A DNA stretch of 64,000 nt from Psilocybe cubensis (GCA_017499595.2 CM039007.1:2728001-2792000), one strand, 5' to 3'; positions 29,602 to 64,000 are shown, numbered from the stretch's first letter. Numbers and translations are program-made. The notes: generated by a model from the letters alone, not told the origin.

Positions 29602-32600
29602 ATGAACGACAACCGTCTGCTTCTGCGGGCACATCTAGCTAGTAGGTTTACGTTGGTGTCCGCAGAAAAACTGTATTCATTGACAAAATCATCAATAAGG
29701 TATCGGATTCCAAGGCGATGTTTTCAATGAGTCCAAACAGCGGGCGTTTTACTTTGCGGAGGTCTTCGTCGACAACAACCAAGTGAAGAAACTCAAAAAA
29801 CTGAAACCAAAGTCGGATAGGCTCAGCTGGGAGTGGGGCCAAAGCAATCAAATGTGAGTATCATAGGGTCGGGCGACTTGAAACTGATAGCTGACGGTAC
29901 TGCACGTCAGATATTTCTCCCCATCGTCCAATCTCAGAGTCGATCTCTATCGAAGTTTCAAGGTCAAAGTGCCGGGGATGGACTCCTTCGTCGGGAGCTT
30001 CGAAGGTAGAATCACAGAATTGCTTGAAAATGGCGAGTACATTCCTCCCCGTACTTATGCTGCTACTGATCCCAGTGATCCCAGGCTTATCGTCAAAGAT
30101 CTTACAGAAAAAAGATGGCACCTCAGTTGGAATAAATATTAACGTTGGATTATCCGGGATTATAGGACCCGTGGGATCAATTGAAGAGTTTATGAAAAAG
30201 GTCGATAGCGATGTATCCCGCCTGAATGGCGTGGATAGCGCAGCATCGCGGACGTTCTGCCTTCTTGCGCCCGTGCTGAGCGGAATCGTATCCTTGATGG
30301 ATAATGTTTCACAGGTACAATATCTCTCTTACCATAAGACCAATGTACACCGTCTTACGCATTGGTGCAAAGGCCCATCCCATCTTGAGCGCCTCTTGGA
30401 CAGTCATATCAAGCATCTATAACGTACGCTTTCTTATGTTTCATTGCATAACAGATACTTACTTCAATGATAGGCAGCGCAGGAGACCGATACACAGGAT
30501 CAGATTATTCAGGATATGGCCAGCACGCTTCGAGAAATGCTGGGTGCCGCAAACCAGGTTCCAAATCTCCCCATGCTACCAGGCATGGTTGATGTAATTG
30601 AGAGGATTGGTCGGACGTCTCTGGATGTTGCATCACTGATTGACGAATACACTCACTTGTCCTATGCTGGTATGTTTTCCTATTGTTTAGAAGGCAACGG
30701 GATGCTCATTCAGACTGGTACCTACAGAGCGCCTGGCGCAGATTCTGCCAGGGGAGCTCGGTCGCCGGGTGGACTCGTGTAAACAGCAATGCAAAGCCGT
30801 ACAGAAGCTTCTTTTTCAGAGAGTTCAGATAGACACGCACACAAAGGTGGAGAAAATAGGTCTGTTTTGTCTATGCACTATTTGATTCCAACATCAGCGC
30901 TCATTACAATTTTGCAGATCATAAGGTTGACGCCGAGGCACAGAGGCAATTAGGTATGACACCAACATATATACTCTGCAGGCTACTAAGACTGTTTGAT
31001 GAAGCCAAGGAAATCGACAACTGGCTGGCACCTGTACACACCTCGCAAAATTATAATGAAGCATATGGAAAACGAGAGGAAGGAACATGTTTGTGGTTCA
31101 TTGAGGAAGAAGAATTTGGATTCTGGTTAAGAACGCCGGGGTTCATATGGGTTTGCGGAAAAGGTATAGAACTTTGTTTCACCAAGTTGTCTTCTAACGA
31201 CTTTACAGCGGGAAGTGGGAAAACAATCTTATGGTTAGTGATTGCTTTTATCAAAGTAACTGTTCAGCTCTAATCCTGCTTATCATTTCAGCGGGCAGAT
31301 CATAAAAGCAATTCAACAATTGACACCATCTGTTGCACTTGCTTACTTCTTTTTTGATGCAAGAGATGGCCAGACAGCGCAACAACTGCATATGAATCTC
31401 ATTCGCTCTCTCATCTCACAGTTGTCTCATCAAAGCGTCAGCGGCATTTCGTCGGATATACGTGATCTGTACCAAAAGGTCTCCCCCATGCATCCACTTG
31501 ACCATGAGCTTCAGGACACTCTTGGAAAAATATTAAAGGAATTCTGCAATGTATACATTGTCCTTGATGCTCTAGATGAATGTACAGATCGGGACAGAAC
31601 ACTTGGATGGTTGGAAGCCCTACTCGGACATTTGGACAACAATGAAAATCTTCATTTGGCAATAACGAGCCGTACAGAACCCGACATACAGTCAGTATTT
31701 GGGCGTTTGAATCACACCATTGTCAATATGAGTACTGCCGCAAATAGGGATATTGGCCAATATATCAAGACTTACATTCAGGCCAAGGAATTCACCAAGT
31801 TTGATGGAGAGACTCGGGATCATGTCTTATCAGGTTTGATGGACCGTGCGGAGGGCTCGTATGTTTTCCTTTTTTTATCACACAACACATTGTCAATTGA
31901 ATATGTTGCAAGGTTTCGTTATGTTGCTCTACAAATTGAGAACTTGAAAAAGTGTGCAAACAAGATGGAGTTGGATAAGGCAATAAATGATCTTCCATGG
32001 GGACTGGATGAAGTTTATGCTCGGATCCTACACAAATGTGAGGACAGATATATTGAAGATGTCAAAACCTTCCTCCAGTTTCTGGCATTCTCACAGGAGC
32101 CATTGACACTTAATGCACTTGCCGAAACAATACTATTTGATTTTCCATTGGGCTTTAAGGGTACTTTAAACCTGGATAAAAGTTATTTGGACCCAGAAGA
32201 CATTCTACAACGTTGTGGAGGACTTGTGATTGAAGATTATAATGGCAAGTCAATACTTTATTAATTGTAAAAGTACTTGAGTAATATTTTATGCAGGATC
32301 CATCAAGTTATCTCATTTCTCAGTCAAGGAATATCTCCTTTCCAACCGAGTTGATGTCAAATTCCAAATGAATGAGCATGCATCCCATATGTACATATCA
32401 CAGATCTTGATATCATACCTTCTGGAATTGGACACACTTGAAGTTCAATTTGGTCATTTCAATTACCTGAAACCATATGCATTGCACACTTGGGCTAAAC
32501 ATGCTATACTATCAGGTCTGGAAAAGGATCAAATGTTTTGTGCATTTGTTGCTCGGCTTTTACAATGCACTAGTGCTTCATTAAGAAGGGAATCCACAGT

Positions 32601-34047
32601 TGTAGTATATCTACTGACTTGTGATATTTTGGTTAAACAAACAGGCTTGGATTGGGCAGTTTCAGAGGGTTTGGAAACTGTGGTTCTGTATATGTTGGAG
32701 GCTGGAGTTGATCTGGACATAAATGGAAGAGAATGTCAAAACACACTTCTAATTGCATCTAATCATGGCTTTGGGCTTTTAGTATCATGCCTCCTGCAAT
32801 ATGGTGTAAATGTAAACACCCGGTATGAAGATGGAACTGCACTCCAAGCAGCATGCTTCCAAGGTCATGAACAAATTATTAATATTCTTCTAAAACATGG
32901 TGCAGATGTAAATGTCCAGGGAGGCTATTTTGGAAATGCACTCCAAGCAGCATCATCTGGAGGTCATGAGCAAATTGTTAATATTCTTCTGCAACATAAT
33001 GCAGATGTAAATGTCCAAGGAGGTTTTTATAGAAATGCACTCCAAGCAGCATCATCTGGAGGTCATGAGCAAATTGTCAACATTCTTTTAAAACATGGTG
33101 CATATGTAAATGCTCAGGGAGGTTACTATGGAAATGCACTCCAAGCAGCATCCTTCCAAGGTCATGAGCAAATTTTTAAAATTCTTCTACAATGTGGTGC
33201 AGATGTAAATGACCAGAGAGGTGAATATGGAAATGCACTCCAAGCTGCATCATCTGGAGGTTATGAGCAAATTGTTAACATCCTTTTAAAATATAATGTG
33301 GATGTAAATGCCCAGGGAGGACATTATGGAAGTGCACTCCAAGCAGCATCATACCATGGTCATGAGCAAATTGTCAACATTCTTCTAGCAAATGGTGCAG
33401 ATGTAGATTTCCAGGATGATAGCTATGGATCTGCACTCCAGGGAGCATCCTTCCAAGATCATGAGCAAATTGTCAACATTCTTCTGAAATATGGTGCAGA
33501 TATAAATGCCCAGGGAGGTGTATATGGAAATGCACTCCAAGCTGCATCATCTGAAGGTCAAGAGCAAATTGTCAACATTCTTTTAGAACATGGAGCAAAT
33601 GTAAATGCTCAAGCAGGTGTATATGGAAATGCACTCCAAGCAGCATCATCTGGTGGTCAAGAGCAAATTGTCAACATCCTTCTGAAACATGGAGCATATG
33701 TAAATGCCCAGGGAGGTGAACATGGAAATGCACTCCAAGGAGCATTGGGAACATACTGGGGACCTTACATGCATGTGGCAGAAATTCTTTTGGATAATAA
33801 TGCTGATGTGACCTCATTAGAATATGTGGACCGAGTTAAAAATCCTGAACTTCAGCAGCGTCTGCGCATTGGCTTTAGGCTATATCAAGCAAAGGTGAGT
33901 TATTATTTTCATACAGCATCTTATTCTATTCATTTCTCCTGCTTTGCCATATACAAACAGCTTTCTCAAATCCCCACACACCGTTTAAATCACTATTATA
34001 CATTTAGCTTTCCACATCTTCTGCGGGATCGTAGGTTTATCATGTAA
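29602..34047 (+). CDS. Fungal NLR: N-terminal C2-like domain + helical domain + NACHT NTPase + ankyrin repeats
   Basis: Spliced Walker A GK/AGSGKT, Walker B YIVLDALDEC, ITSR, FRYVALQI, LP.GLDEVYARIL, HFSVKEYLL; ~10 ankyrin repeats GNALQAAS..GHEQIVNILL; N-terminal exons read FYFAEVFVDN..LSWEW..LRVDLYR..FVGSFEGRITELL (C2-like). Last exon uncertain. Confidence 0.9.
32830..33745 (+). repeat. Highly conserved 99-bp ankyrin tandem repeats
   Basis: GGAAATGCACTCCAAGCAGCATC...CATGAGCAAATTGTCAACATTCTT recurring every 99 nt. Confidence 0.9.
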
Positions 34048-51125: not shown

Positions 51126-54100
51126 TTATGATGACAGGGCCAAATAGAGTTCTTTGTCAAAATATTTGTTTAATCGGAACTCGGTGCTAGTGGAATGACT
51201 GTTATGTGTAGTAAGGCTTCGCCTTGCCTTCTCGCCCATCTGAGGGACCAGATCAACCAGGGAGCGTATTTGATTCAATGGTAAAATTCCACCCATAATG
51301 GTGTTATCTGTACGTTGACTTCGTTTTAATTTATACATGCCGGTTATTGGCTCTGGGTAAGGTCCACGGATCGCAGAACCTAGAGACTGTGGCTGATTTA
51401 AAACCTCAAAACGTTGGACGTATGTGAGAAATCTTCCAGTAATATCGGGAGACACAGTACTGGGTGTCTCTCCGACAATGCGAAAAATAATACGAATGTC
51501 GACGACAGAATGGCCTACAATATTGGCTGGTCAACGGGGTTCGGAAAAAAGTCACAAAGAAGTACTACCTTGAAGCCCGCTGCGAGGCCACTCCTCAGAT
51601 TCATCCACGTTTATGATTGCTGAATCGAAGTATCCAAAAGGATGTTTGTTAGATGGCGGATATGCATTAAGTGTGACTGCCTCCAGGATCTCATGAGGGT
51701 ATTGGTACGCAGTCGACTGTATACGGACCTTATGCCATACCTCAAGTTTTGAATACGGCAACGGACAACCGGGAGGAGAAACACGCCTGCCAGTTATCCC
51801 CTTGATGTGATAACCTCGAGAATTGGTCTATCTCGGATTTGATTCCTTATTGATGAGTGACACATAATCGGCAATTGCTGGTCGTAGGTCGGGAATTTTA
51901 AAAATGCTCGCAACCTCGTCGATATGCAATCTTTTGGAACTAGCATCCCTAGATAAATGGGCAACAACGTTTTTGCTGCAAGAAAATGTTCTGTAGGGGA
52001 CTGGGCCTTCCAATACGCCACGCTCATAGAGACTAGCTTTGTAGAAGTAATCCACAATGCGATTGGACTTTGCTGATTGAAAGGTTGTCATCGGCATGAT
52101 TGTTGAAAGAAGTTCTGACGTTGTGTCCATCACAACCTCGCCGTTTTCCTCCCCCTCATCCCCCTCCTCCTGCTCCTCCTCATCCGTAATTGTTGCAGAG
52201 TGTATAGCCCGAAAATCAATCCTCATTTCTCGTATAGCTGTAAACAAATCGAAATTGCGCAATTTGTCACGACGATCAAGGTATCAACAAACTTGAGGCT
52301 CGTATCTTTGATTATTGCTGGAACTGGAAGGGGCTTTGACCACCTCGATATGTGCATGCTCTGTCGTGTCTGCAGACCATTGGATTGCACATCCATTTAG
52401 TCTAATTGCGTGTACTACACTTTGCAAAAACTCGAGTTTTGGAATATAGAAATTATCGATTGGGTTGTTTTTTTTACCTCGACGTGCTCCCGCGTCAAGG
52501 ATGGCTTGTTTATTGGCATGGAAATCTTGCAGTGCCTGCTCAATTCTGAGACACATTGCCTCGGAGATTGTTTGAGATTGTGCGAGATACCGAAAGTCCA
52601 TCAGAGACCGGATGGCTAAGATAAAGGGTGTACTGACTGTGTCTGCAATGAGAGCAACAATGTATCGCTGAACGTCCCGATGTTCCCTACCGGTCACTTG
52701 TTTCAAGGAAGAAATCCCTTCCTTGAAGTGTCGGAAACCAGTGCGGTGCTGTAAAATCGAAAATCGAAAATCCAATTCGGAACCTCCGACTGCAGCAATG
52801 CACCATTTTGCATCATGATCCCAGAACATCTTGTGCCAGTGATGAAGGGGTTCAGGCGTAAGGAATGCAGAAGGATCAGACAAGGGCCAATCTCTCCAAA
52901 ACGGTAGGTGAACCCCATTGAGACGGTGCTTTTTGCTTTCTTTTAGATATGGTTTGAGATGATTAGGGGGCTTAACATTGTTGATGGCCATGATGGTGTT
53001 GATTGTATGATCTGCAGTTCGGGAAGGGTGGCGAAAGGAATCCCCAAACGTCTCGTATTGTGCCAACGTCACAGAGGATGTGGATCCTGCGACGCAAGCC
53101 GCCAGAGCAGATTCTGGAGTATCAACGATAAGGGCAGCAAGCGGTGTAAAGCAGAAACGATTATTCCCCAATGCATCTGCCATGGTGGTTCCCACCCTCG
53201 CAGTTTGTTTGACCGATTCTAGAGCAATGTCCATGCACTGGTGATATAGCCGTGCTGCCATCATCCCATTCACAGCTTTGGAGCGATGAAGAAACTTTGG
53301 TATGGGAAGAAGAACAAAAAGAAGGAATAAATGATTTGACGATTTGTTTCTAACGTTCATCATTATGTTGGCAATGCTGATAAGGCCAGGGTAGGCGACA
53401 CGGCCTCCGGTCATGTTGGAAATGTTGGTTTTATCCGTGGAAATAATAGGAGGTACAAGTGTTGCTCCTTTTGGGAGCTGGTCCTTGGGAACCTTGTTAT
53501 ACTGTCGTCAAACTTGGACAAAGGCATTGCTACTAACCTGCATAAAATGCGCAATGTCACCGCTAAACCACTCAGTGTATACCCACATCATCTCGTTGCA
53601 CTTGTCGAAGAGCTTGAATGGGCTAAAGTGCATGCTATCTTGGAGCAAGGGACTGATGAGAAGCGCCTTGATACATTCCAATCCATCGCGGTAAAAAAGC
53701 GTTAGCTGATTTTTGCTTGGTATTTCTGGTATGATCATTTGACTCTTCCACTGCGGACCAGAGGGAAGGATCTCTGCCCGGTTGCGTAGATCTTTTGCCG
53801 ACTTGTAGGACAAGTTGAGTTTTTTTATCTATACGGGATCGACTCAGCTGAAATAAATAATGATGGGAATGTACGCTCAATTACCAGTTCAAGTTTCAAA
53901 AAATCATTCAGCATTCCTACGCTCATGTCAGAGCGAAGTAGGAACAGGGAGAGCTCCCATTCATCTTTCGAGGCAAAAGGATAGTACAAATTTTCCGCCC
54001 GCTGGGGTTCGAATTGATCCTGTTTGAGCTGATCCATGAATGTAAGGCCTGTTCCAAATGCTCTTCCAGCCCCGTTATAATCCTCCTTCATGTACGGATA

Positions 54101-54430
54101 GTTGTATTTTGATGCCTTGGGGGGTGGGTCATCTTCCATCTCTGATGACGCGCCAAGAAAATTGTCGATATAGTCCACTTCCATAAAATTACCAATTTCG
54201 GGAGAAGGGTCTCGAGATACGGGGGTTGCTGATCTAGATGTAGAGCTTGAACGATTGGACTGAAAATGCATAACGTTCTCATATTGAAAACGACATGCCG
54301 ATTTTGGTTGATTGATGTGATTTTGGACATCTGCATGCTTAGCGAATGGCTTGTTGCATCGAGGACAACGCACACAGATTTCCTGAGTTCTCTTGCCCTT
54401 GCCCTTTCCCATGTTGAAACAACGACTCAT
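51126..54430 (-). mobile_element. Plavaka-family transposase gene, inactivated by in-frame stops
   Basis: N-terminal CxxC..H finger; YYPFASKDEWEL; LPSGPQW; LFYRDGLECI; YTEWFSGD; IISTDKT; AYP..ISIANI; DTPESAL; PFWRDW; PEPLHHWHKMFWDHD; QVTGREHR; IPKLE; SADTTEHAHI; FRLNKY. Stops at 52284-52286 (TGA) and 51828-51830 (TAG). Confidence 0.9.
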
Positions 54431-55809
54431 ACAAAAGCGAAGATACGAAAAAAAACTGATAATGTAATGTTCAGTAACGTGCAGTGGGTCTATAAATGTT
54501 ATCTGATTATGTCTCCGTTAATACAAACAAATTTCACATGGGTTAGTATTCAACCAATCCGTAGTACAATCCAAGGAGGGCTTCGGAAGAGCTTTACTGT
54601 ATATACGCACCAGAACAAAGACACTAACACATTTTTTGAAGTGGGTGGAAGAAGCATCAACAAACGTAAGTTAGTTGATTTCATTGACCTTGATGATAAA
54701 TTCAAACGCACAGCAGTTACAGTAAAGCCAGAAGCTTTCATCCCAGCGAGAATTTGCATATTGGTCTGGCGATACGAGCAGCACACAACTACAGATAATA
54801 AAACAATCGTCATTATGTTACAGGACATACACGCCTTTCAGTACTAAATAAAACATGGCATGTATGTAAATCAAGATGTGTGTCAATGTGTTGTACAATA
54901 TCAAAGTCGCCGTCGTTTAGAAGGCGGAACAGACTCTGATTCTGATGAAGAGATAAGCATTTGCGACGTAAAGGCATAATCGAACACACGTACTCGGATT
55001 TGTGCTCTCCAGCTTGACTTTCATGCCATCCAGATACAGTTTATCCCTCACACTCGTACCAAGTTCCAGAATCTCCTTGGGAGTTCCTAGTTTGTGACGT
55101 GGTTAGTGAATATCCAAAGGCAGACACTGGTCCACCTACTCAATTGCGTTGAGGAATCCGCACAGGCATCACAGTCAATGAGAGTGATTACGGGTAACTT
55201 GAGCATCTTTGGGACCAAGGAACGAGGAAGCTGGTCGATACTGCGACATATAACCTTGTTCAATTCTCCGCTGCAGACGCCCTGAAGCTGGACAAAAAGC
55301 AAACTGGTGTCGGTACAGCAAGGGGCACCACCAATGTTGTTATGTTTGGCTTCTGCGTCGTAGGCTAGAATCATACGGGCATAGCGGCAAAGTATCATTT
55401 CATGGAACTTTTCTGTCGCCATGATATTTTGTGCATCCTTGTTTTTGTCCGTCTCAATCATGTAGTGGATGGACTTCGTGCGATGACATAGCCACTCTAG
55501 AATAGCCAAGGCTTCGCCACGGGCAAAGATGCACGCCTTGCGCTCTTCGTCGCTCAGGCTGTTGGTATCCCACCGCATCCATGCGTCTAACTGTGCCGAA
55601 GTCTTGGTGGAGAACATCTGATCGGGATTTTGTCAGGGTACGTATTGGTGCCACCCCTATCCGTTATCGTTATCTGTTACGGTCCCACGCTGTCATGCCT
55701 TGTTCTATCTTTGTGTTCGGTCCCACGTCTATCGTTCTCCTGTTTCATCTATTGATAGTTGTCATATGTCGAGTACTCTGGTCCGGGAAGTAGTTACTCC
55801 GGTCTCCAT

Positions 55810-55818
55810 GTATATATA
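55810..55818 (+). promoter_or_regulatory. TATA box in the LTR U3 (repeated in all four LTRs)
   Basis: GTATATATA about 35 nt upstream of AGCTTCGATAT, the inferred transcript 5' end. Confidence 0.6.
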
Positions 55819-55998
55819 GGGTCCTGGGGTCAGTAGTCAGACCCCAGCTTCGATATCAACTTGGTCTTTGGGCATTCTTCTCTCTTGACTTAAGTCGATT
55901 CCTAACAGCATATCGAAGCTACCCAACGTTGCCCTGGTACTCTATCCACTGCAGCGCTCGTCTACTCCACTCTACCTTGCCCCCACCTATTATACTCT

Positions 55999-56895
55999 AT
56001 GGCCGACCCTCCTTCGCCTTACGATGGGTTCATGACGATGTCTCTCGACGACCGTTTCGCCCTCCTCTTTAGGGCGCAGCAAGTCCGGTTTGACGCTGAT
56101 AAAAAGGTTGATGACCGACTGTCTGCCATCGAGTCTAAACTCGAACGCCTCACAGCCTCCCTACCCAAACCGCCTGCCGCTCCCACTCCCTCTGCTCGCG
56201 CACCTCGCGCTCGACGCACCTCTAGGAAGGAACGCCCGGCTGCACCTACCTCTACCCCTACTACAGGGCCCCCGCACTCCCAATCCATCCGCTCTACCAC
56301 TACCAAAGCCGCCCTCGAGAAGATCGTTGCTACCCTGTCTATTGCGGACGAACAGGCTGGCCACGTCATAGGGCGCGCGGGAACTGGCTTACGCCAAATC
56401 CACGACATCTCGCATGCAAAGATCTCGGTCTCCCCCGTCGTCACCTCCGGTTTGCGTGCCGTCACTATCAGGGGCACCGCTCGTGAAGTCGGTGATGCTC
56501 TCTCTGCTATCGGCAAGCGGATTGCCCGTCGTCGCATCCGCAACCCTAGGTCCAAGAAGCCTAAACAGCCTCCTGCGCCCACTGCTGCCCCTCCTACCCT
56601 CGTCGTTGAACCTCCTTCTCCTACTCCAACCTCGAGCTCTACCCCAACTACGCGGACACCCCGTTCCGGGACGGCTTCTCCGCACTCGCCCACTCCTACG
56701 GCTGTTGACACTCGCTCCAGCCCATCCTCGTCGCTCGCCCCTGGTTCGCCTATGGAGGTGGACGCTCTCAGGGCTCCGCAGCAACACTCTGACGGTTACT
56801 CTCGCCCCGGGCCTGTTCAGCCTAGGGAGGGAATTCAGACCGCGCGTCGTGGCGGTGGACCGCCTCGTGTCTTTGGTGCAAACCGTCCACGGTGA
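55999..56895 (+). CDS. Coiled-coil + type I KH-domain RNA-binding protein, 298 aa (LTR element copy 1)
   Basis: KH: ATLSIADEQAGHVIGRAGTGLRQIHDISHAKISV..RAVTIRGTAREVGDALSAI with GxxG loop; N-terminal heptads VDDRLSAIESKLERLTASL; PMEVD; C-terminal RRGGG. Confidence 0.9.
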   Translation: MADPPSPYDGFMTMSLDDRFALLFRAQQVRFDADKKVDDRLSAIESKLERLTASLPKPPAAPTPSARAPRARRTSRKERPAAPTSTPTTGPPHSQSIRSTTTKAALEKIVATLSIADEQAGHVIGRAGTGLRQIHDISHAKISVSPVVTSGLRAVTIRGTAREVGDALSAIGKRIARRRIRNPRSKKPKQPPAPTAAPPTLVVEPPSPTPTSSSTPTTRTPRSGTASPHSPTPTAVDTRSSPSSSLAPGSPMEVDALRAPQQHSDGYSRPGPVQPREGIQTARRGGGPPRVFGANRPR

Positions 56896-59376
56896 AGACC
56901 AGGTCGTTGGGACACCGACCTTTAGAGGGGAGGTGATGTCAGGGTACGTATTGGTGCCACCCCTATCCGTTATCGTTATCTGTTACGGTCCCACGCTGTC
57001 ATGCCTTGTTCTATCTTTGTGTTTGGTCCCACGTCTATCATTCTCCTGTTTCATCTATTGATAGTTGTCATATGTCGAGTACTCTGGTCCGGGAAGTAGT
57101 TACTCCGGTCTCCATGTATATATAGGGTCCTGGGGTCAGTAGTCAGACCCCAGCTTCGATATCAACTTGGTCTTTGGGCATTCTTCTCTCTTGACTTAAG
57201 TCGATTCCTAACAGATTTCGATAGGTCTCGTAGTCGAGCGCATTTGCCAAGATCATGCACACGCACAGAGCTATCAAGCTCGAGTATCCGGACTGCATAC
57301 TGTAGAATGGGACATGGTACATTTCATAAAAATCTGAGAGAAAATAGAAGAAAAGAATCAGATATCTTGTAGGAAACGGTAAAAAACCTCATACCTTCTG
57401 GGTCGCTGTCACCTTCAACCAAAACCTTGTAGAACCAATGTATGGTTTGCTGCAGGAAAAATCGGGACGTTGAATGATTCGTATTCGTTGCCCTGTATCC
57501 AGCGGTAAAATAGTGAATGATTCCTGTCAGGGTTTCTTCGAAGGAAGTGGAGGAGTAAAAATGTCCGCCACGGCAAACCACTGAGGAGATAGAATACGCC
57601 ATATGTAGAGTATTCGGTCTCATGAAGCTGTTTTTCAAAGTAGCGTCAATATAATCAAATGGGTAGGACATTCAAAAATCACATACAGTTCTGACTGGTT
57701 ATCAAGAACAATTGCCTCGTAAATCCAGTCTTGGTTGTGCGTTTCCCCGTAATCCAGCTTGTCTCCCAGAAATACACGGCGGTCAGAAGAAAGGTCAACA
57801 TCCAACCGTCTGGGATACATGATAATCCACAGCTTCAGTCCATGAAGAGGTTGGATGAAGGAACAGAAACCATTGGCATCGATATGGATATCTGAAAATG
57901 CCCCCTCTGTAGCTACGAGTCCCCATGACATATCACCAAATGGGACGGGGGTACTATACTTCCAGCTACCAGATGTAGCCCGAAGAGCAGCCGCCTCAGT
58001 ACTCAAGTCAAAAGAGTGAGCGCCTGCATGAGGTAAAGGGATGTCGAGGGCATTGAGGATCTTTCCTCTTTTGCCTTTCATCCTCGCTGCTTCCATGACC
58101 TGAGAGAGGGACCCACGCTTAATCCTCTCGATGGGGTTAGACGACATGGTCGACATATCTGTTACGGCCATTAGCATGAGACGCAGAAAGAAAAATCAAA
58201 ACATCGAAGAGGAAACACACCTTGGATTGACCTGGTACTCGTCATATCACCCATATGGCGACGTACCTGGCTGTAGAACTCGTCGGAGCAAGTTGAAATA
58301 GACTCCTCTTGAGAAGGAGACATAAGGACGACGTTCCTTTCAGAGAAAGACTCCATCAGATACATGGATTTCGTGGTGCTGCGGTCGAATACCGCAAAAC
58401 ATGATTCTTCGGGACGTGCTATGTGCAATGGAACTCCATCGACGTAGTCACTCTCGACCAATTCCAGAACCCTTTCAACACGATCCACGTCGGCTTGACT
58501 CTTGTTTGGAGAATAAATAAATGACGAAAAAATCAATATCGAGAATGACTTACATGGGCAACAACGCAGAAACTTTTAAGTTGGCCACGACCGTTGTAGG
58601 TGGACCAAACTTTGGTGCCATACACCTTCTCCGGAGTGCTGACGACATCAAGGGTGGTGTTGCTGTCGTACAGATCGACATCAATACACAGGTCGTCGTC
58701 CGAATCAAATGTGTCGGTAGCCTGCGTCGGCTTGCGTTTGGGAGGCCGCTTGGAAAGGCCCTGCCGGCCCTTCCCTTTCCCTTTCTGAGAGGAGTCAGCC
58801 GTGGTGTTTTTGCTCCTGTTTATCTGGGAAACAGGAGGAATCCTCAAAATAAGAGGAGCAGGAGGTGCGTTCTCCCCCTCCTTTTCGCCTTGGCTGTCTT
58901 CCAATGTATTCCTCTCCATGTCTGAGGAATCATTGTTTTGCTCTGGGCCTACCCCCTCTCCATCGACCGACATTCTGTCCTCCTGGACTGGTGGAACATC
59001 CCCTTGCCCCTGCTTCTCGGTCTCATTGTCTGACGAACTGTCGTCTGGCCTTTCCTCCTCACCATCTTCTGACATTCGGTTCTCCTCGTCGGGTCGTTCT
59101 CCATCTTGCCCCTGCTTTTCGCCCTCGTGAACTTCCGATATGCGATTTGCCTCGTCAGAAGACCCTTCAGCTCCTTGTCTAGCCCCGCCGTCTCCCAAAT
59201 TTTCTGGACCATTGGTATGTGGACCATCCTCCATTTGATGGTCGACATCAGCTTGCTCCGGATCGACGTTCATCTCACAATCCCCTGCAGTTGAGGGCCC
59301 AGTATTCTCAGTCTGAAGTAGACCAGATCCAATATTATCACTCCGCGGCAAACCAGGTTGCTCGTCCGTGGGCACA

Positions 59377-59562
59377 TCCTTGCCAGCCACCGAAGATGTG
59401 TCTTCCGGAGGCTGTATATCTGAGGTAGGGACCGTATTGTCCCCGTTCTCCTGTTGACCCATGCTGACATCCTTGCCAGCCACTGAAGACGTGTCTTCCG
59501 GAGGCTGTATATTTGAGGTAGGGACCGTATTGTCCCCGTTCTCCCGTTGACCCATGCTGACC
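59377..59562 (-). repeat. 93-bp tandem duplication in the acidic exon of the JmjC gene
   Basis: VSMGQ(R/Q)ENGDNTVPTS(N/D)IQPPEDTSSVAGKD occurs twice in frame. Confidence 0.85.
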
Positions 59563-60062
59563 ATTTCCGTCGTGTCCACTTCGTGATCATCGTCACCCTC
59601 CGCGTCTGCGTCGGACCCTTCACAGGTGGTTTTTTCACCATGATGGGAAACGGTCTGAAGTTGAGCTGTTTTAAACGGATTTAAATCATGTAATTGACGC
59701 AGACTTTGCTTATAACTTACCGTGTGGTTCAGTGCTGCGCCTTGCTAGGTTAGAATTTGCTGTAACCTCGGCGCTGCTCGTTGACGCTGGCCAATTATTA
59801 GTTTAAATTGTTATTTTGTTACAGTACGTAGAACACACATATGAAAAAGTGAAACGCGGGATCTTGTGCAATTACCCGCTCGCATTCCATCCAGCAGTCT
59901 GAGATAACAAGTTTATATAAGGCTGACTGGATGTCGCAATTTTGCGCTGCAATGATTTTCCAAATTTCCATCTCCACTTCACGCAGAACACGGGGGCGAC
60001 AATTACCGAGCGCTTTTGAGGCCTAAAGGAGTGCGTTAATCCAAGTTAAACTGGGAGGATGT

Positions 60063-61645
60063 TGTCAGGGTACGTATTGGTGCCACCCCTATCCGTTATC
60101 GTTATCTGTTACGGTCCCACGCTGTCATGCCTTGTTCTATCTTTGTGTTCGGTCCCACGTCTATCGTTCTCCTGTTTCATCTATTGATAGTTGTCGTATG
60201 TCGAGTACTCTGGTCCGGGAAGTAGTTACTCCGGTCTCCATGTATATATAGGGTCCTGGGGTCAGTAGTCAGACCCCAGCTTCGATATCAACTTGGTCTT
60301 TGGGCATTCTTCTCTCTTGACTTAAGTCGATTCCTAACAGCATATCGAAGCTACCCAACGTTGCCCTGGTACTCTATCCACTGCAGCGCTCGTCTACTCC
60401 ACTCTATCTTGCCCCCACCTACTATACTCTATGGCCGACCCTCCTTCGCCTTACGATGGGTTCATGACGATGTCCCTCGAGGACCGTTTCGCCCTCCTCT
60501 TTAGGGCGCAGCAAGTCCGGTTCGACGCCGATAAAAAGGTTGATGACCGACTGTCTGCCATTGAGTCTAAACTCAAACGCCTCACGGCCTCCCTACCCAA
60601 ACCGCCTGCCGCTCCCACTCCCTCTGCTCGCGCACCTCGCGCTCGACGCACCTCTAGGAAGGAACGCCCGGCTGCACCTACCTCTACCCCTACTACAGGG
60701 CCCCCGCACCCCCAATCCATCCGCTCTACTACTACCAAAGCCGCCCTCGAGAAGATCGTCGCTACCCTGTCTATTGCGGACGAACAGGCTGGCCACGTCA
60801 TAGGGCGCGCGGGAACTGGCTTACGCCAAATCCACGACATCTCGCATGCAAAGATCTCGGTTTCCCCCGTCGTCACCTCCGGTTTGCGTGCCGTCACTTT
60901 CAGGGGCACTGCTCGTGAAGTCGGTGATGCTCTCTCTGCTATCGGCAAGCGGATTGCCCGTCGTCGCATCCGCAACCCTAGGCCCAAGAAGCCCAAACAA
61001 CCTCCTGCGCCCACTGCCGCCCCTCCTACCCTCGTCGTTGAACCTCCTTCTCCTACTCCAACCTCGAGCTCTACCCCAACTACGCGGACACCCCGTTCCG
61101 GGACGGCTTCTCCGCACTCGCCCACTCCTACGGCTGTCGACACTCGCTCCAGCCCATCCTCGTCGCTCGCCCCTGGTTCGCCTATGGAGGTGGACGCTCT
61201 CAGGACTCCGCAGCAACACTCTGACGGTTACTCTCGCCCCGGGCCTGTTCAGCCTAGGGAGGGAATTCAGACCGCGCGTCGTGGCGGTGGACCACCTCGT
61301 GTCTTTGGTGCAAACCGTCCACGGTGAAGACCAGGTCGTTGGGACACCGACCTTTAGAGGGGAGGTGATGTCAGGGTACGTATTGGTGCCACCCCTATCC
61401 GTTATCGTTATCTGTTACGGTCCCACGCTGTCATGCCTTGTTCTATCTTTGTGTTCGGTCCCACGTCTATCGTTCTCCTGTTTCATCTATTGATAGTTGT
61501 CGTATGTCGAGTACTCTGGTCCGGGAAGTAGTTACTCCGGTCTCCATGTATATATAGGGTCCTGGGGTCAGTAGTCAGACCCCAGCTTCGATATCAACTT
61601 GGTCTTTGGGCATTCTTCTCTCTTGACTTAAGTCGATTCCTAACA
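60063..61645 (+). mobile_element. Non-autonomous LTR retroelement (1,583 bp) encoding a KH-domain protein, copy 2
   Basis: LTRs 60063-60339 and 61369-61645, apparently identical to each other; 5-bp TSD GATGT; same PBS and PPT as copy 1. Confidence 0.95.
60431..61327 (+). CDS. Coiled-coil + type I KH-domain RNA-binding protein, 298 aa (LTR element copy 2)
   Basis: Intact ORF, 6 amino-acid differences from copy 1. Confidence 0.9.
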   Translation: MADPPSPYDGFMTMSLEDRFALLFRAQQVRFDADKKVDDRLSAIESKLKRLTASLPKPPAAPTPSARAPRARRTSRKERPAAPTSTPTTGPPHPQSIRSTTTKAALEKIVATLSIADEQAGHVIGRAGTGLRQIHDISHAKISVSPVVTSGLRAVTFRGTAREVGDALSAIGKRIARRRIRNPRPKKPKQPPAPTAAPPTLVVEPPSPTPTSSSTPTTRTPRSGTASPHSPTPTAVDTRSSPSSSLAPGSPMEVDALRTPQQHSDGYSRPGPVQPREGIQTARRGGGPPRVFGANRPR

Positions 61646-63119
61646 GATGTGGATACACCTACTTTAAGCAGCTGCTCCCGGTCACATTTCTTAGAATACC
61701 AAGATTTATTCACAAAAAGAAGGATGGGGGATATGAAAAGGGCGACATGCAGAGGAATTTTTAAATGAGATGGCGTGACCTCTGAGAGGAACAACGCAGC
61801 ATCAGGATGGCCGCTTGCACTAGGGTATGTTGAGCAGATTGTATCAATGAATAGAGGAAAGAAAACTTACTAGAGATTTGCAAGAGTAGCCGTGTCCGTT
61901 GGAATGTCTGGTAGAACGTGTTCATCGTCCTTCATACCGCGCATTCCTGACAAGATTTGGTAGTGTAGCGAGGCGCAGTACACATTCCCGATTATTTTCC
62001 CCACAACACCCTTGAAGTGGTTACGCGCCAGACAGAGTAATAGCGTTGATTCCGAGGGCCCGCCCTGGGTGAAAGCAGATGACGGCGTGTCACTGATAGA
62101 AGGGGTGTTGATGTTTCTGTGCGACTTAGAGTCGGCTCTGAGGATGCGCTTCCTGGCAGAGCAGAGCATTGCCGGCCAGTCCTTCAAGTCATCTACAAGC
62201 TACAATAATTGTTTGAAAATTAAGAATTAACATTGAGTGACTTCATGATCGCATACCTTGAACCGTGAAAATATTTCCTTAGTTCCTGTGCTGGCCTGTA
62301 TTTCATTCAGGGGCACGGTCACCGGCAACAATGGTCCAAAGGCTGCTGGCCACAACGCTACGAGATCGAGTAGACGGTATGCTGCAAATAAGCTACCACT
62401 AGTCCCTACCACTTTTTATGATAAAACAATAGCAAGTGTTAGCACACTCTTTTTATAACTGTTGATGGTTTTATCACAAAGCAAAATAATGAGAAGACTG
62501 GTCTATTTCTCATAAGTTTACTTCGCTTTTTCAAAGCCTTTTTCATTAGATAATACCCTTCTTTCTCATTATCTTTAGGGCGCTTTTTCATTACCTTTTG
62601 ATTAGATACTAGCCTGGTTATTTGATAAGATTGTTCTACATCAATATATCTTATCTTTGCTTGGTCATTTCTGATGCCATGCCATCAAATCAGGAACACT
62701 GTGGGTACTTCTAGGCCATGTCTATCAATCCATCAAAGCTATTATTAAATAAACTTTTCTCTCCTCGGCCCCTTGGTCTATAAATAGTGCTCATCCTATG
62801 CTACTTTTGTGCATTGCTGGCAATGGATTGGACGCTTTTGGGGGCATTTCTGGACCGTTTCCCTTGGTGTTTTTTGGTAGACCTATAGTTTTAAAGTGTC
62901 CCAATCCGAATATGAAATCAGAATTGCAATATCTTTACTCATTATTGTGCAATTAAGCGTACGATGTTTTGATCAAAAAGCGCACCTTGAATAGCACCAT
63001 CCAGGGGCTGGTATGCACCCTTCTGACTATGCCATTATTTTGTATTTATATTAGACAGAGTACATGCCAAGTTTCAGCTTAATTGGGGCAGTGGAACCTA
63101 TTGAACTAGCATATGCATC

Positions 63120-64000
63120 CTACCTCTCCTCCTACCCCTTGTATGAATACCTTCCTGATCAGATATTTTCAAGCCCAACTGGGATAAAGTAGGCGCTTAT
63201 TATACCAATTTTTAAAGCCTAAAATATTGGTGAAACTTCAAGATTTAAGGGTACTACCCCCTACTCCCTCCAGAACTTGTGTATTTTATTATGGGATAGG
63301 ATGGGCTCTCAGACCATTAAAAGACATGTAGATCCACTACTAACAGTACATAGAGTCCAAAATTTACCCTTGAAAGCCCTCTTCAACAAGGGAACATACT
63401 GATTTAAGGGGGGGTATGAGGATAGGTATGGTAGGTTATTGATCAGGCCATATCTCTATAAATACATTGTCATAAATCATATTGTTGACGTCTACAGATA
63501 CCTATAGTTGCCCCCTAAATATCTTTCTTAGGCTGAAAAATGATCCGTCCATTAGCTGAGATGCTGCAGAGGGAATACCATTCTTCATCAAAATGCATAG
63601 TATTTTCGCATTTACCATATATAAATGATTATGATCAGGAAATATAAAAGCAGGATAGTATAGCCTCAGAATGCAGCTTTCCAGAACATCAAGGATGTTG
63701 TGCATCGGACCAGTGGTTGCTGAGATATGAAAAGAAAGGTGTTGAAGAACCCATCAGAGACCCGGATGGATATTGGCCTTTATTTATGCTTTGTTTGTGG
63801 TCACCTCTTTGGCCTTTCTCCGAGATACATTTTGACATATCTCAGCTCATACTCATCGGATTTCCATGAGTCTATATACCACAGATAGGTGTCATTTAGG
63901 GCTACACAGCCGTATAGTTTATGTATTTTATAAGTGTTATCTTTTACATCATATTTCGCTTTTCCTCCATTTTTGAACAACAATGCTTCTTCTTCTTGTA
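63120..64000 (-). pseudogene. Degraded, CpG-depleted coding relic (probable transposon cargo), runs off the right edge
   Basis: Protein-like frames (..LNDTYLWYIDSWKSDEYELRY.., ..LHNILDVLESCILRLYYPAF..PPLNQYVPLLKRAF..) broken by many TGA/TAG/TAA stops. Confidence 0.4.

Follow-up and report, generated by a model that had tools for sequence, protein, structure and literature searches.

A 64,000-nt stretch of the Psilocybe cubensis genome (GCA_017499595.2, CM039007.1:2728001-2792000; one strand, hereafter the window) carries two copies of a small retroelement with long terminal repeats (LTRs), whose only open reading frame (ORF) encodes a protein built around a type I KH domain. We consider it probable, at roughly 0.6, that this KH element is a young, recently mobile, non-autonomous and self-priming LTR retroelement of an old Agaricomycete family, in which the KH protein replaces Gag and secures the packaging of its own RNA, and which relies on a self-priming Gypsy element as helper. 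The evidence that carries this reading comprises the anatomy and insertion of the two copies, the family to which they belong, a self-primer whose complementarity covaries among relatives, the KH fold and purifying selection on the ORF. A preliminary description of this DNA, made from the sequence alone, had recognised the element and its KH domain; it overlooked the Tf1-type self-primer at the primer-binding site (PBS), the large and old family, and the purifying selection on the ORF.

A repeat finder, self-BLAST and pairwise alignment all delimit the same two copies, A and B, each 1,583 bp long (Table 1). They are 98.4% identical, with 26 differing sites and zero indels. Both have 277-bp LTRs whose TG..CA termini read TGTCAGGG and CCTAACA, a 5-bp target-site duplication (TSD) of their own and a polypurine tract (PPT), and the 1,029 bp between the LTRs hold a single ORF that encodes 298 residues. 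The structural statements of the preliminary description hold throughout. Because the LTRs of copy A differ from each other at only two sites and those of copy B at none, both insertions are young. Self-BLAST revealed no further copy or solo LTR in the 64-kb window. The insertion of copy A can be followed in raw DNA reads from two runs, X15 and X16, which carry the same species label as the window: the empty-site joint 55625->57214 occurs in 467 reads of X15 and 366 of X16 and omits exactly 1,588 bp, that is, the element and one copy of the TSD. The TG..CA LTRs, the TSD with its empty site, and the PBS and PPT place the element among the LTR retrotransposons at the level of the order, and it has none of the Gag, protease, reverse transcriptase (RT)/RNase H and integrase that mark autonomous Ty3/Gypsy or Ty1/Copia elements. 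The hammerhead ribozyme that defines retrozymes is also absent; an Rfam search of 55300-61900 at E<=1 returned one chance-level miRNA match outside the elements.

The encoded protein contains one recognisable domain. Pfam assigns residues 112-171 to KH_1 (PF00013) with 35.7 bits (cut-off 21.5) over profile positions 3-64 of 66, and finds the same domain in every one of the 33 members of the family alignment on which our domain and motif counts are based. None of the 33 matches a Gag, zinc-knuckle (CCHC), protease, RT, RNase H or integrase family at E<=5, which, together with the precise empty site, bears out the earlier view of a retroelement lacking both pol and gag. An AlphaFold2 model computed on the family alignment has a mean predicted local distance difference test (pLDDT) score of 62.8, with two confident parts (pLDDT ~87-95): a helix at residues 16-53 and a beta-alpha-alpha-beta-beta-alpha domain at residues 109-177 (strands 109-116, 141-144 and 152-159; helices 117-124, 126-138 and 161-177). 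The Pro/Ser/Thr linkers, already noted in the preliminary description, are disordered in the model, with pLDDT below 50 at residues 55-94 and over most of 189-298.

Sequence and fold comparisons lead to the same group of proteins. Searched against Protein Data Bank sequences, the family profile matches KH chains only, all inside profile positions 86-161, and the top matches are the third KH domains of PCBP1, PCBP2 and hnRNP K (E 6e-7 to 4e-6). The Foldseek list consists entirely of type I KH domains and is headed by hnRNP K KH3 and by KH1 and KH3 of PCBP1/2, with target-normalised template-modelling scores of 0.80-0.89 and root-mean-square deviations of 1.1-2.8 A over ~70 residues. With a score above the gathering cut-off, an intact GxxG loop (GRAG) in the window protein and the canonical topology, the domain is a type I KH domain as first described, closest in both sequence and fold to poly(C)-binding KH domains. 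The profile and structure comparison proposed in the preliminary description thus returned a KH domain at residues 109-177 and no capsid: a capsid fold is absent from the Protein Data Bank sequence matches and from the listed Foldseek matches, and no structured region is large enough to be one. Querying the ESM Atlas with the whole protein returned two KH clusters from Basidiomycota, at 0.85 and 0.81, that serve only as leads, and residues 1-105 gave no usable match.

The regions that flank the KH domain are family-specific. The N-terminal helix, which had been read as a coiled coil, is modelled at a pLDDT of about 90, and a heptad pattern occurs within the first 75 residues of 28 of the 33 members by a crude test (L, I, V, M or F at >=75% of a/d positions in a proline-free 28-residue window). 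A basic patch of the form GKRxARRRx comes after the KH domain in all but one of the 33. The statement in the preliminary description that a PM(E/D)xD motif often precedes the nucleocapsid of fungal Gypsy Gags gains one instance: GSPMEVDALR in the KH protein can be likened to GEPMDIDRL, which lies 16 residues ahead of the CCHC knuckle in the Ty3/Gypsy Gag of a related locus (L012, see below).

The second line of evidence concerns priming. The sequence behind the 5' LTR lacks an initial TGG; the PBS is therefore not of the tRNA 3'-end type, and tRNA priming was rejected; no tRNA gene lies in the window. The PBS ATATCGAAGCT is the exact reverse complement of an 11-nt stretch within the LTR, AGCTTCGATAT, a length of match that shuffling the downstream 22-mer reproduced 3 times in 1,000. 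This is the sequence arrangement of Tf1/sushi self-priming, and a TATA box ~35 nt ahead of the stretch predicts that transcription starts there. Self-primed reverse transcription is defined for Tf1, Tj1 and the Tf1/sushi and Tcn1 groups in PMC4600332, PMC2864245 and PMC6317226, and Tcn1 is placed in basidiomycetes in one of these (PMC2864245). A tolerant scan with inspection found the same arrangement in both window copies and in 18 of 29 nucleotide loci of relatives, all from a single metagenome scan and given L-numbers here, with 16 distinct primer/PBS sequences. The complementarity spans 9-13 nt overall and 10-13 nt in the loci, and the partner stretch in the LTR lies 45-115 nt upstream; the loci outside the 18 are mostly truncated on one side. 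In L012 the PBS pairs with the 3' LTR version of the primer, since the 5' LTR copy has one change.

A strict scan for the order TATA box, 10-13-nt stretch, ...CA and reverse complement gave 11 matches from 11 sources, every one on the strand of the ORF, compared with one match in the reversed sequences and three in 20 block-shuffled sets. RNAalifold folds 11 elements into a helix between the 5' end and the PBS with 14 pairs, nine of them with compensatory changes, a count that is partly circular because the input sequences were chosen through complementarity. The fold predicted for 55846-55930 as a single sequence, at -19.1 kcal/mol (z -2.4), likewise joins the 5' end to the PBS. Furthermore, 11 of 12 elements (the window element, L001, L003, L006, L007, L011, L012, L014, L015, L016 and L019) have a stable hairpin in the interval from the TATA box to the self-primer, with energies of -12 to -19 kcal/mol and z-scores between -1.9 and -6.1. 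The hairpin extends with its 3' arm 2-5 nt into the primer, and its sequence varies among elements while the structure is kept; definition of the start site, strand transfer and primer structure are possible roles. When contig ends were checked as transcript ends, no short contig started at the predicted start of the RNA. The leaders that follow the PBS contain 35-49% C and 8-16% G in 11 of 12 elements, the twelfth having no intact start codon.

The window element belongs to a family that is widespread in fungi, old and apparently undescribed. There are 38 homologues of similar length, and an exhaustive profile search returned 1,243, 262 and 69 clusters (50% identity) at E<=1e-3, 1e-10 and 1e-30, respectively; family-length matches have 250-400 residues. 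The named hosts, Psilocybe cubensis, Psilocybe cf. subviscida, Agrocybe pediades, Dendrothele bispora, Termitomyces sp. and Sphaerobolus stellatus, represent five Agaricomycete genera, with multiple copies in Termitomyces and P. cf. subviscida. Database entries of P. cubensis match the window proteins at 99% identity and form a 90% cluster of 14 members, 11 of them 298 residues long, across at least eight contigs of 3.0-4.7 Mb; additional diverged or truncated copies occur among the homologues. P. cubensis alone has ~20 gene models of such ORFs. A maximum-likelihood tree of the 38 proteins resolves several deep, well-supported clades. In this tree the Sphaerobolus (Geastrales) protein groups with that of Dendrothele (Agaricales), closer than Dendrothele does to Psilocybe, which implies either coexisting old lineages or horizontal transfer. 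Two longer proteins, P0119 (759 residues) and P0125 (770 residues), form a distant subfamily that shares the N-terminal helix, the KH domain and the basic patch, to which a ~370-residue low-complexity extension and a separate conserved C-terminal segment are added, with no other Pfam domain. The full-text literature searched holds no KH-encoding LTR element, in agreement with the initial statement that no family of this architecture was known, and papers beyond that search may exist.

The relatives' nucleotide loci repeat the layout of the window element. Direct repeats flank the KH ORF in 12 of the 29, with a spacing of 1.25-1.85 kb, and the relatives' LTRs run TGTAAGGGG..CCCTTACA. Four of the twelve (L001, L002, L005 and L014) have contig-end overlaps of 63-127 nt at 100% identity; we rejected circular molecules as their source, as the overlaps look like assembly closure of collapsed LTRs. 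A TSD is present in three of the four elements with both ends known, L018 being the one without, and G-rich tracts stand at the PPT position also in L007, L011, L012, L016 and L018. In L012, a complete KH element (1142-2998; LTRs of 363 bp, 97% identical; TSD ACAAC) sits in a Ty3/Gypsy gag, in the same orientation, between the capsid domain and the zinc knuckle. Elsewhere, L011 lies downstream of a Gypsy gag, L019 beside a protease and L026 beside a copia gag. None of these four neighbours was accepted as the helper: they are insertion targets or adjacent ORFs, and the sequences do not include LTRs of theirs for comparison. Insertion into other transposons fits chromodomain-guided integration, but elements that land in repeat-rich DNA may just as well be the ones that survive.

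The ORF is under purifying selection both within and between lineages. Of the 26 sites at which copies A and B differ, 20 fall within it, 14 of these synonymous and six non-synonymous (ratio of non-synonymous to synonymous change, pN/pS, 0.165), and 15 of the 20 fall at third codon positions. Among genomic copies sampled by the reads, the 22 best-supported ORF variants divide into 17 synonymous and five non-synonymous. Variation is dominated by CpG transitions, which make up 18 of the 23 listed C>T/G>A changes, and CpG-type changes were therefore tested separately: eight are synonymous and three non-synonymous, where neutrality predicts 34% synonymous (P=0.009). Eight pairs of loci have dN/dS values of 0.16-0.50, and a ninth is saturated. 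It follows that the KH protein matters to the lineages that propagate. As regards the variation in general, the 119 variable places among copies in X15 comprise 61 C>T, 34 G>A, 16 T>C and five A>G changes, so that nearly all are transitions; the bias towards CpG sites is the signature of methylation-driven decay, and copy A is not CpG-depleted (observed/expected 0.97). The synonymous divergence between the ORFs of A and B (pS 0.056) is far above the divergence of LTRs between the copies (1-3 differences in 277 bp), which suggests either mosaic copies formed by recombination of co-packaged RNAs or strongly constrained LTRs.

Table 1 Features of the KH element in the window; positions are counted from the first nucleotide of the window
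Feature	Position	Strand	Remarks
TSD GATTT of copy A	55626-55630 (left), 57214-57218 (right)	+	empty-site joint in reads
5' LTR of copy A, TGTCAGGG...CCTAACA	55631-55907	+	277 bp; 2 differences from 3' LTR
TATA box TATATATA within LTR	55811-55818	+	~35 nt upstream of self-primer
Hairpin CTGGGGTC-8 nt-GACCCCAG	55824-55847	+	-15.4 kcal/mol, z -3.5; 3' arm covers first 2 nt of primer
Predicted transcript start and self-primer AGCTTCGATAT, then conserved CAACTTGG	55846-55856	+	exact reverse complement of 55910-55920
PBS ATATCGAAGCT, 2 nt past LTR	55910-55920	+	does not begin with TGG; pairs with 5' end in minimum-energy fold
C-rich, G-poor leader with C tracts (C 42%, G 12%)	55921-55998	+	candidate binding site of KH protein
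Sole ORF of copy A, 298 aa, ATG to stop	55999-56895 (stop included)	+	pN/pS 0.165 against copy B
Long N-terminal helix, aa 16-53, 3-4 hydrophobic spacing, putative coiled coil	56044-56157	+	pLDDT 87-94
Type I KH domain, GxxG = GRAG	56332-56511	+	aa 112-171 by Pfam; model elements aa 109-177
Basic patch IGKRIARRRIRNPR right behind KH domain	56512-56553	+	GKRxARRRx-like in 32/33 members
PMEVD motif, aa 251-255, in disordered tail	56749-56763	+	loose PMxVD in 22/33 members
QTARRGGGPP motif, aa 280-289, near C-terminus	56836-56865	+	QTARR-like in 20/33 members
PPT AGAGGGGAGGTGA touching 3' LTR	56924-56936	+	purine tract, both copies
3' LTR of copy A	56937-57213	+	277 bp
Copy B	60063-61645	+	5' LTR 60063-60339; PBS 60342-60352; 3' LTR 61369-61645; LTRs identical
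ORF of copy B, 298 aa	60431-61327	+	
TSD GATGT of copy B	60058-60062 and 61646-61650		

We propose the following course of events for the KH element. Transcription would begin from the TATA promoter inside the LTR, and the first 10-13 nt of the RNA would fold back on the PBS, 2 nt behind the LTR. Once cleaved, this folded-back 5' end would prime the minus strand, as in Tf1 and Tj1; the plus strand would be primed by the PPT, and integration would yield the 5-bp duplication. An element without RT, RNase H, integrase and protease must use a helper, and self-priming needs an RT/RNase H that can cleave and extend such a primer, which points to a Gypsy chromovirus of the Tf1/sushi/Tcn1 type. This self-priming Ty3/Gypsy helper would supply protease, RT/RNase H and integrase in trans, and most likely the capsid shell as well. 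The combination of helix, poly(C)-type KH domain, basic patch and C-rich leaders suggests a protein that attaches to its own RNA and ensures that this RNA is packaged. Standing in for Gag, the KH protein would bind its own message, probably within the C-rich leader, multimerise via its N-terminal helix and so raise the odds that its own RNA, and not that of the helper, is packaged and copied.

Several points count against this proposal. We infer the transcription start, the identity of the helper, RNA binding, multimerisation and the role in packaging, and the 18 window ORFs scanned for a helper include neither RT nor integrase. In addition, the bin at the border of LTR and leader has a read depth of ~610 in X15, where ~614 is predicted by hand estimate from LTR and internal depth, so that the depth does not point to an abundant partner with LTR, PBS and leader in common. 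The 22-mer shuffles and the controls of the strict scan address chance and not the circularity of the covariation counts. One clade of eight members has neither the PMxVD nor the QTARR motif in its C-terminal part, and the likeness of PMxVD to Gypsy Gag is not significant (hhalign E=0.14), so that a protease site or docking motif common to both would be only a lead. Finally, the conserved hairpin upstream of the primer is not known to have a place in the Tf1 model, a point in which the KH element would differ from Tf1.

The other explanations differ chiefly in what they make of the KH protein. It is conceivable, if unlikely, that the protein stabilises, exports or translates the element RNA or shields it from RNA silencing, and that packaging depends on RNA signals read by the Gag of the helper. 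Cellular poly(C)-binding proteins act in such ways on their targets, and the closest folds are indeed the KH domains of PCBP and hnRNP K; the C-rich leader and the lack of significant Gag similarity are in keeping with this, and purifying selection fits any function that favours the encoding copy. However, a freely diffusing stabiliser or suppressor would aid all copies and the helper too, so that selection on the ORF of each individual lineage should be weak, and the layout of coiled coil plus RNA-binding domain resembles that of packaging proteins such as L1 ORF1p, as outlined in PMC6428221. We regard it as improbable that the KH protein forms a ribonucleoprotein of its own in the manner of LINE-1 ORF1p, with only RT/RNase H and integrase borrowed and no need for a helper capsid. 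That the family persists without any Gag remnant would be explained in this way, but LTR elements are known to deliver RT and integrase as Gag-Pol inside particles.

The preliminary description had offered the ORF as either Gag-derived or Gag-replacing, and the two halves of that suggestion have fared differently. An ordinary, highly diverged Ty3/Gypsy Gag with a KH domain as nucleocapsid replacement, as in an element of TR-GAG type, would account for an ORF in gag position and for a PMxVD motif like the one ahead of the Gypsy zinc knuckle. Outside the KH domain, though, only one helix of 38 residues is structured, too small for a capsid domain; no Gag family matches any of the 33 members, and neither sequence nor fold matches include a capsid. 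Aligned by hhalign with the two halves of the Gypsy Gag of L012, the family finds only the short PMxVD motif, and nothing in the capsid half. Searches for longer proteins sharing the whole ORF found none, nor did any of 92 candidates share the C-terminal 59 residues (240-298), both of which are weak evidence; no fusion to pol occurs among the family members checked, and Pfam scans of the 11 longest profile matches show KH_1 alone in ten and nothing in one. Descent from Gag is thus very doubtful, and replacement of Gag is the better reading. Least probable, and already disfavoured, is the notion that the KH ORF is a passenger, either a captured fragment of a host gene without a role or a host gene using LTR promoters. 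LTR elements do capture host sequences, and KH is a cellular fold. Against this stand the LTR-ORF-LTR layout with covarying self-primers in deeply diverged clades, the ORF intact in 11 of 14 P. cubensis copies, and purifying selection at both levels; moreover, the profile search found no full-length cellular counterpart, the next matches beyond the family being multi-KH proteins that align in the KH domain only.

Gag replacement with self-priming, the reading that we prefer, sets the KH element beside several known systems. The plant TR-GAG elements are characterised in PMC13570524 as non-autonomous elements that retain a gag ORF and are called 'semi-autonomous', and TRIM and LARD elements are defined there as non-coding. 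Like TR-GAG, the KH element is small, has LTRs, PBS and PPT, lacks the enzymes and keeps one conserved ORF in gag position; unlike TR-GAG, its ORF is no Gag and encodes a helix and a KH domain with neither capsid nor zinc knuckle, its host is a fungus, and it self-primes instead of using a tRNA. With TRIM and LARD it shares small size (1.58 kb) and dependence on a helper, whereas its intact 298-aa ORF under purifying selection removes it from a class that the same source defines as non-coding. The 5-bp TSD and the self-primer complementarity recall Tf1, Tf2, Tj1 and the Tf1/sushi-Tcn1 elements, but those are autonomous, with Gag, protease, RT, integrase and chromodomain, and the KH element has none of these genes.

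LINE-1 ORF1p combines, according to PMC6428221, a coiled coil, a domain that binds single-stranded RNA and a basic region, and packages the RNA that encodes it. The likeness of the KH protein to it is an analogy of layout and presumed logic and implies no homology. ORF1p forms a coiled-coil trimer and carries an RRM and a C-terminal domain, whereas here a heptad helix is joined to a KH domain; moreover, ORF1p belongs to a non-LTR element with target-primed reverse transcription. PCBP1/2 KH1/KH3 and hnRNP K KH3, the best sequence and fold matches, come from cellular proteins with several KH domains, in contrast to the single KH domain and family-specific flanks seen here, and identity is 20-33%. 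BARE-2 of barley, reportedly a case of 'life without GAG', is said to have no functional Gag of its own and to parasitise its partner BARE-1, with which it shares sequence, while keeping pol. Both elements are thus without a functional Gag, and the KH element differs in having neither gag nor pol and in having added a foreign RNA-binding protein. It is, in sum, a semi-autonomous LTR retrotransposon that combines self-priming with such a protein.

The surroundings of the two copies are themselves repetitive. The flanks of copy A (54800-55630 and 57214-58000) have a summed read depth of ~520-600 at a coverage of at most ~57-fold (1,632 million letters over >=28.8 Mb of distinct P. cubensis contigs), so that the elements lie in a repeat of the host that is present roughly ten or more times, and the empty site is supplied by its other copies. 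Depth in the element interior is ~384 in X15 and ~279 in X16, and the summed LTR depth, ~3.5-4 times the internal one, indicates that solo LTRs exist too. The ratio of interior (55977-56939) to flank depth is ~0.68 in X15 versus ~0.50 in X16, which hints at copy-number differences among strains and hence at recent activity. Both KH elements lie inside the host repeat in the same orientation, 2.8 kb apart, and no terminal inverted repeats for the host repeat were found in 44000-64000. The pre-insertion targets of A (55621-55640/57209-57228) and B (60053-60072/61641-61660) are alike, with GGAT-T-GATA around the TSD, a resemblance between two sites only that may be chance. In silico excision of copy A extends a minus-strand frame from 181 to 237 codons. 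A minus-strand frame of 403 codons (58533-59744) contains at 59374-59559 two tandem 93-bp units, 96% identical, that encode a repeated acidic Ser/Thr-rich peptide with no Pfam family. Two kilobases upstream of copy A lies the ORF of a Plavaka (KDZ-type) transposase (52284-53507, minus strand; Pfam E=2.3e-64), and at 31260-34047 on the plus strand two adjacent frames have NPHP3_N (NACHT-associated) and ankyrin-repeat domains, a combination typical of fungal NLR-like genes.

Non-autonomous LTR retrotransposons are usually viewed as non-coding shells (TRIM, LARD) or as gag-only elements (TR-GAG). The KH family indicates that an LTR parasite can swap Gag for an unrelated, cellular-type RNA-binding module and that this module is maintained by purifying selection across deeply diverged lineages. 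It extends Tf1-type self-priming to a non-autonomous mushroom family and offers 16 natural covarying primer/PBS pairs together with a conserved hairpin. A system of 1.6 kb and one ORF makes it possible to test which minimal set of genes an element has to encode, how the cis-preference of LTR elements originates and how the particle and enzymes of a helper are hijacked. For genome annotation, such ORFs are now labelled 'hypothetical' or 'K Homology domain-containing' host proteins and should be masked as transposon genes. More speculatively, and in our estimate with a rather low probability, a whole fungal LTR lineage may have dropped both Gag and Pol, its coiled-coil KH protein coating its own RNA in the manner of LINE ORF1p for the RT and integrase of a helper, and that RNA priming itself from a 5' end that is flanked by a hairpin and so imitates a structured primer. 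If true, LTR retrotransposons would have a third mode of existence besides autonomy and passive RNA parasitism, one that has been kept across the Agaricomycetes.

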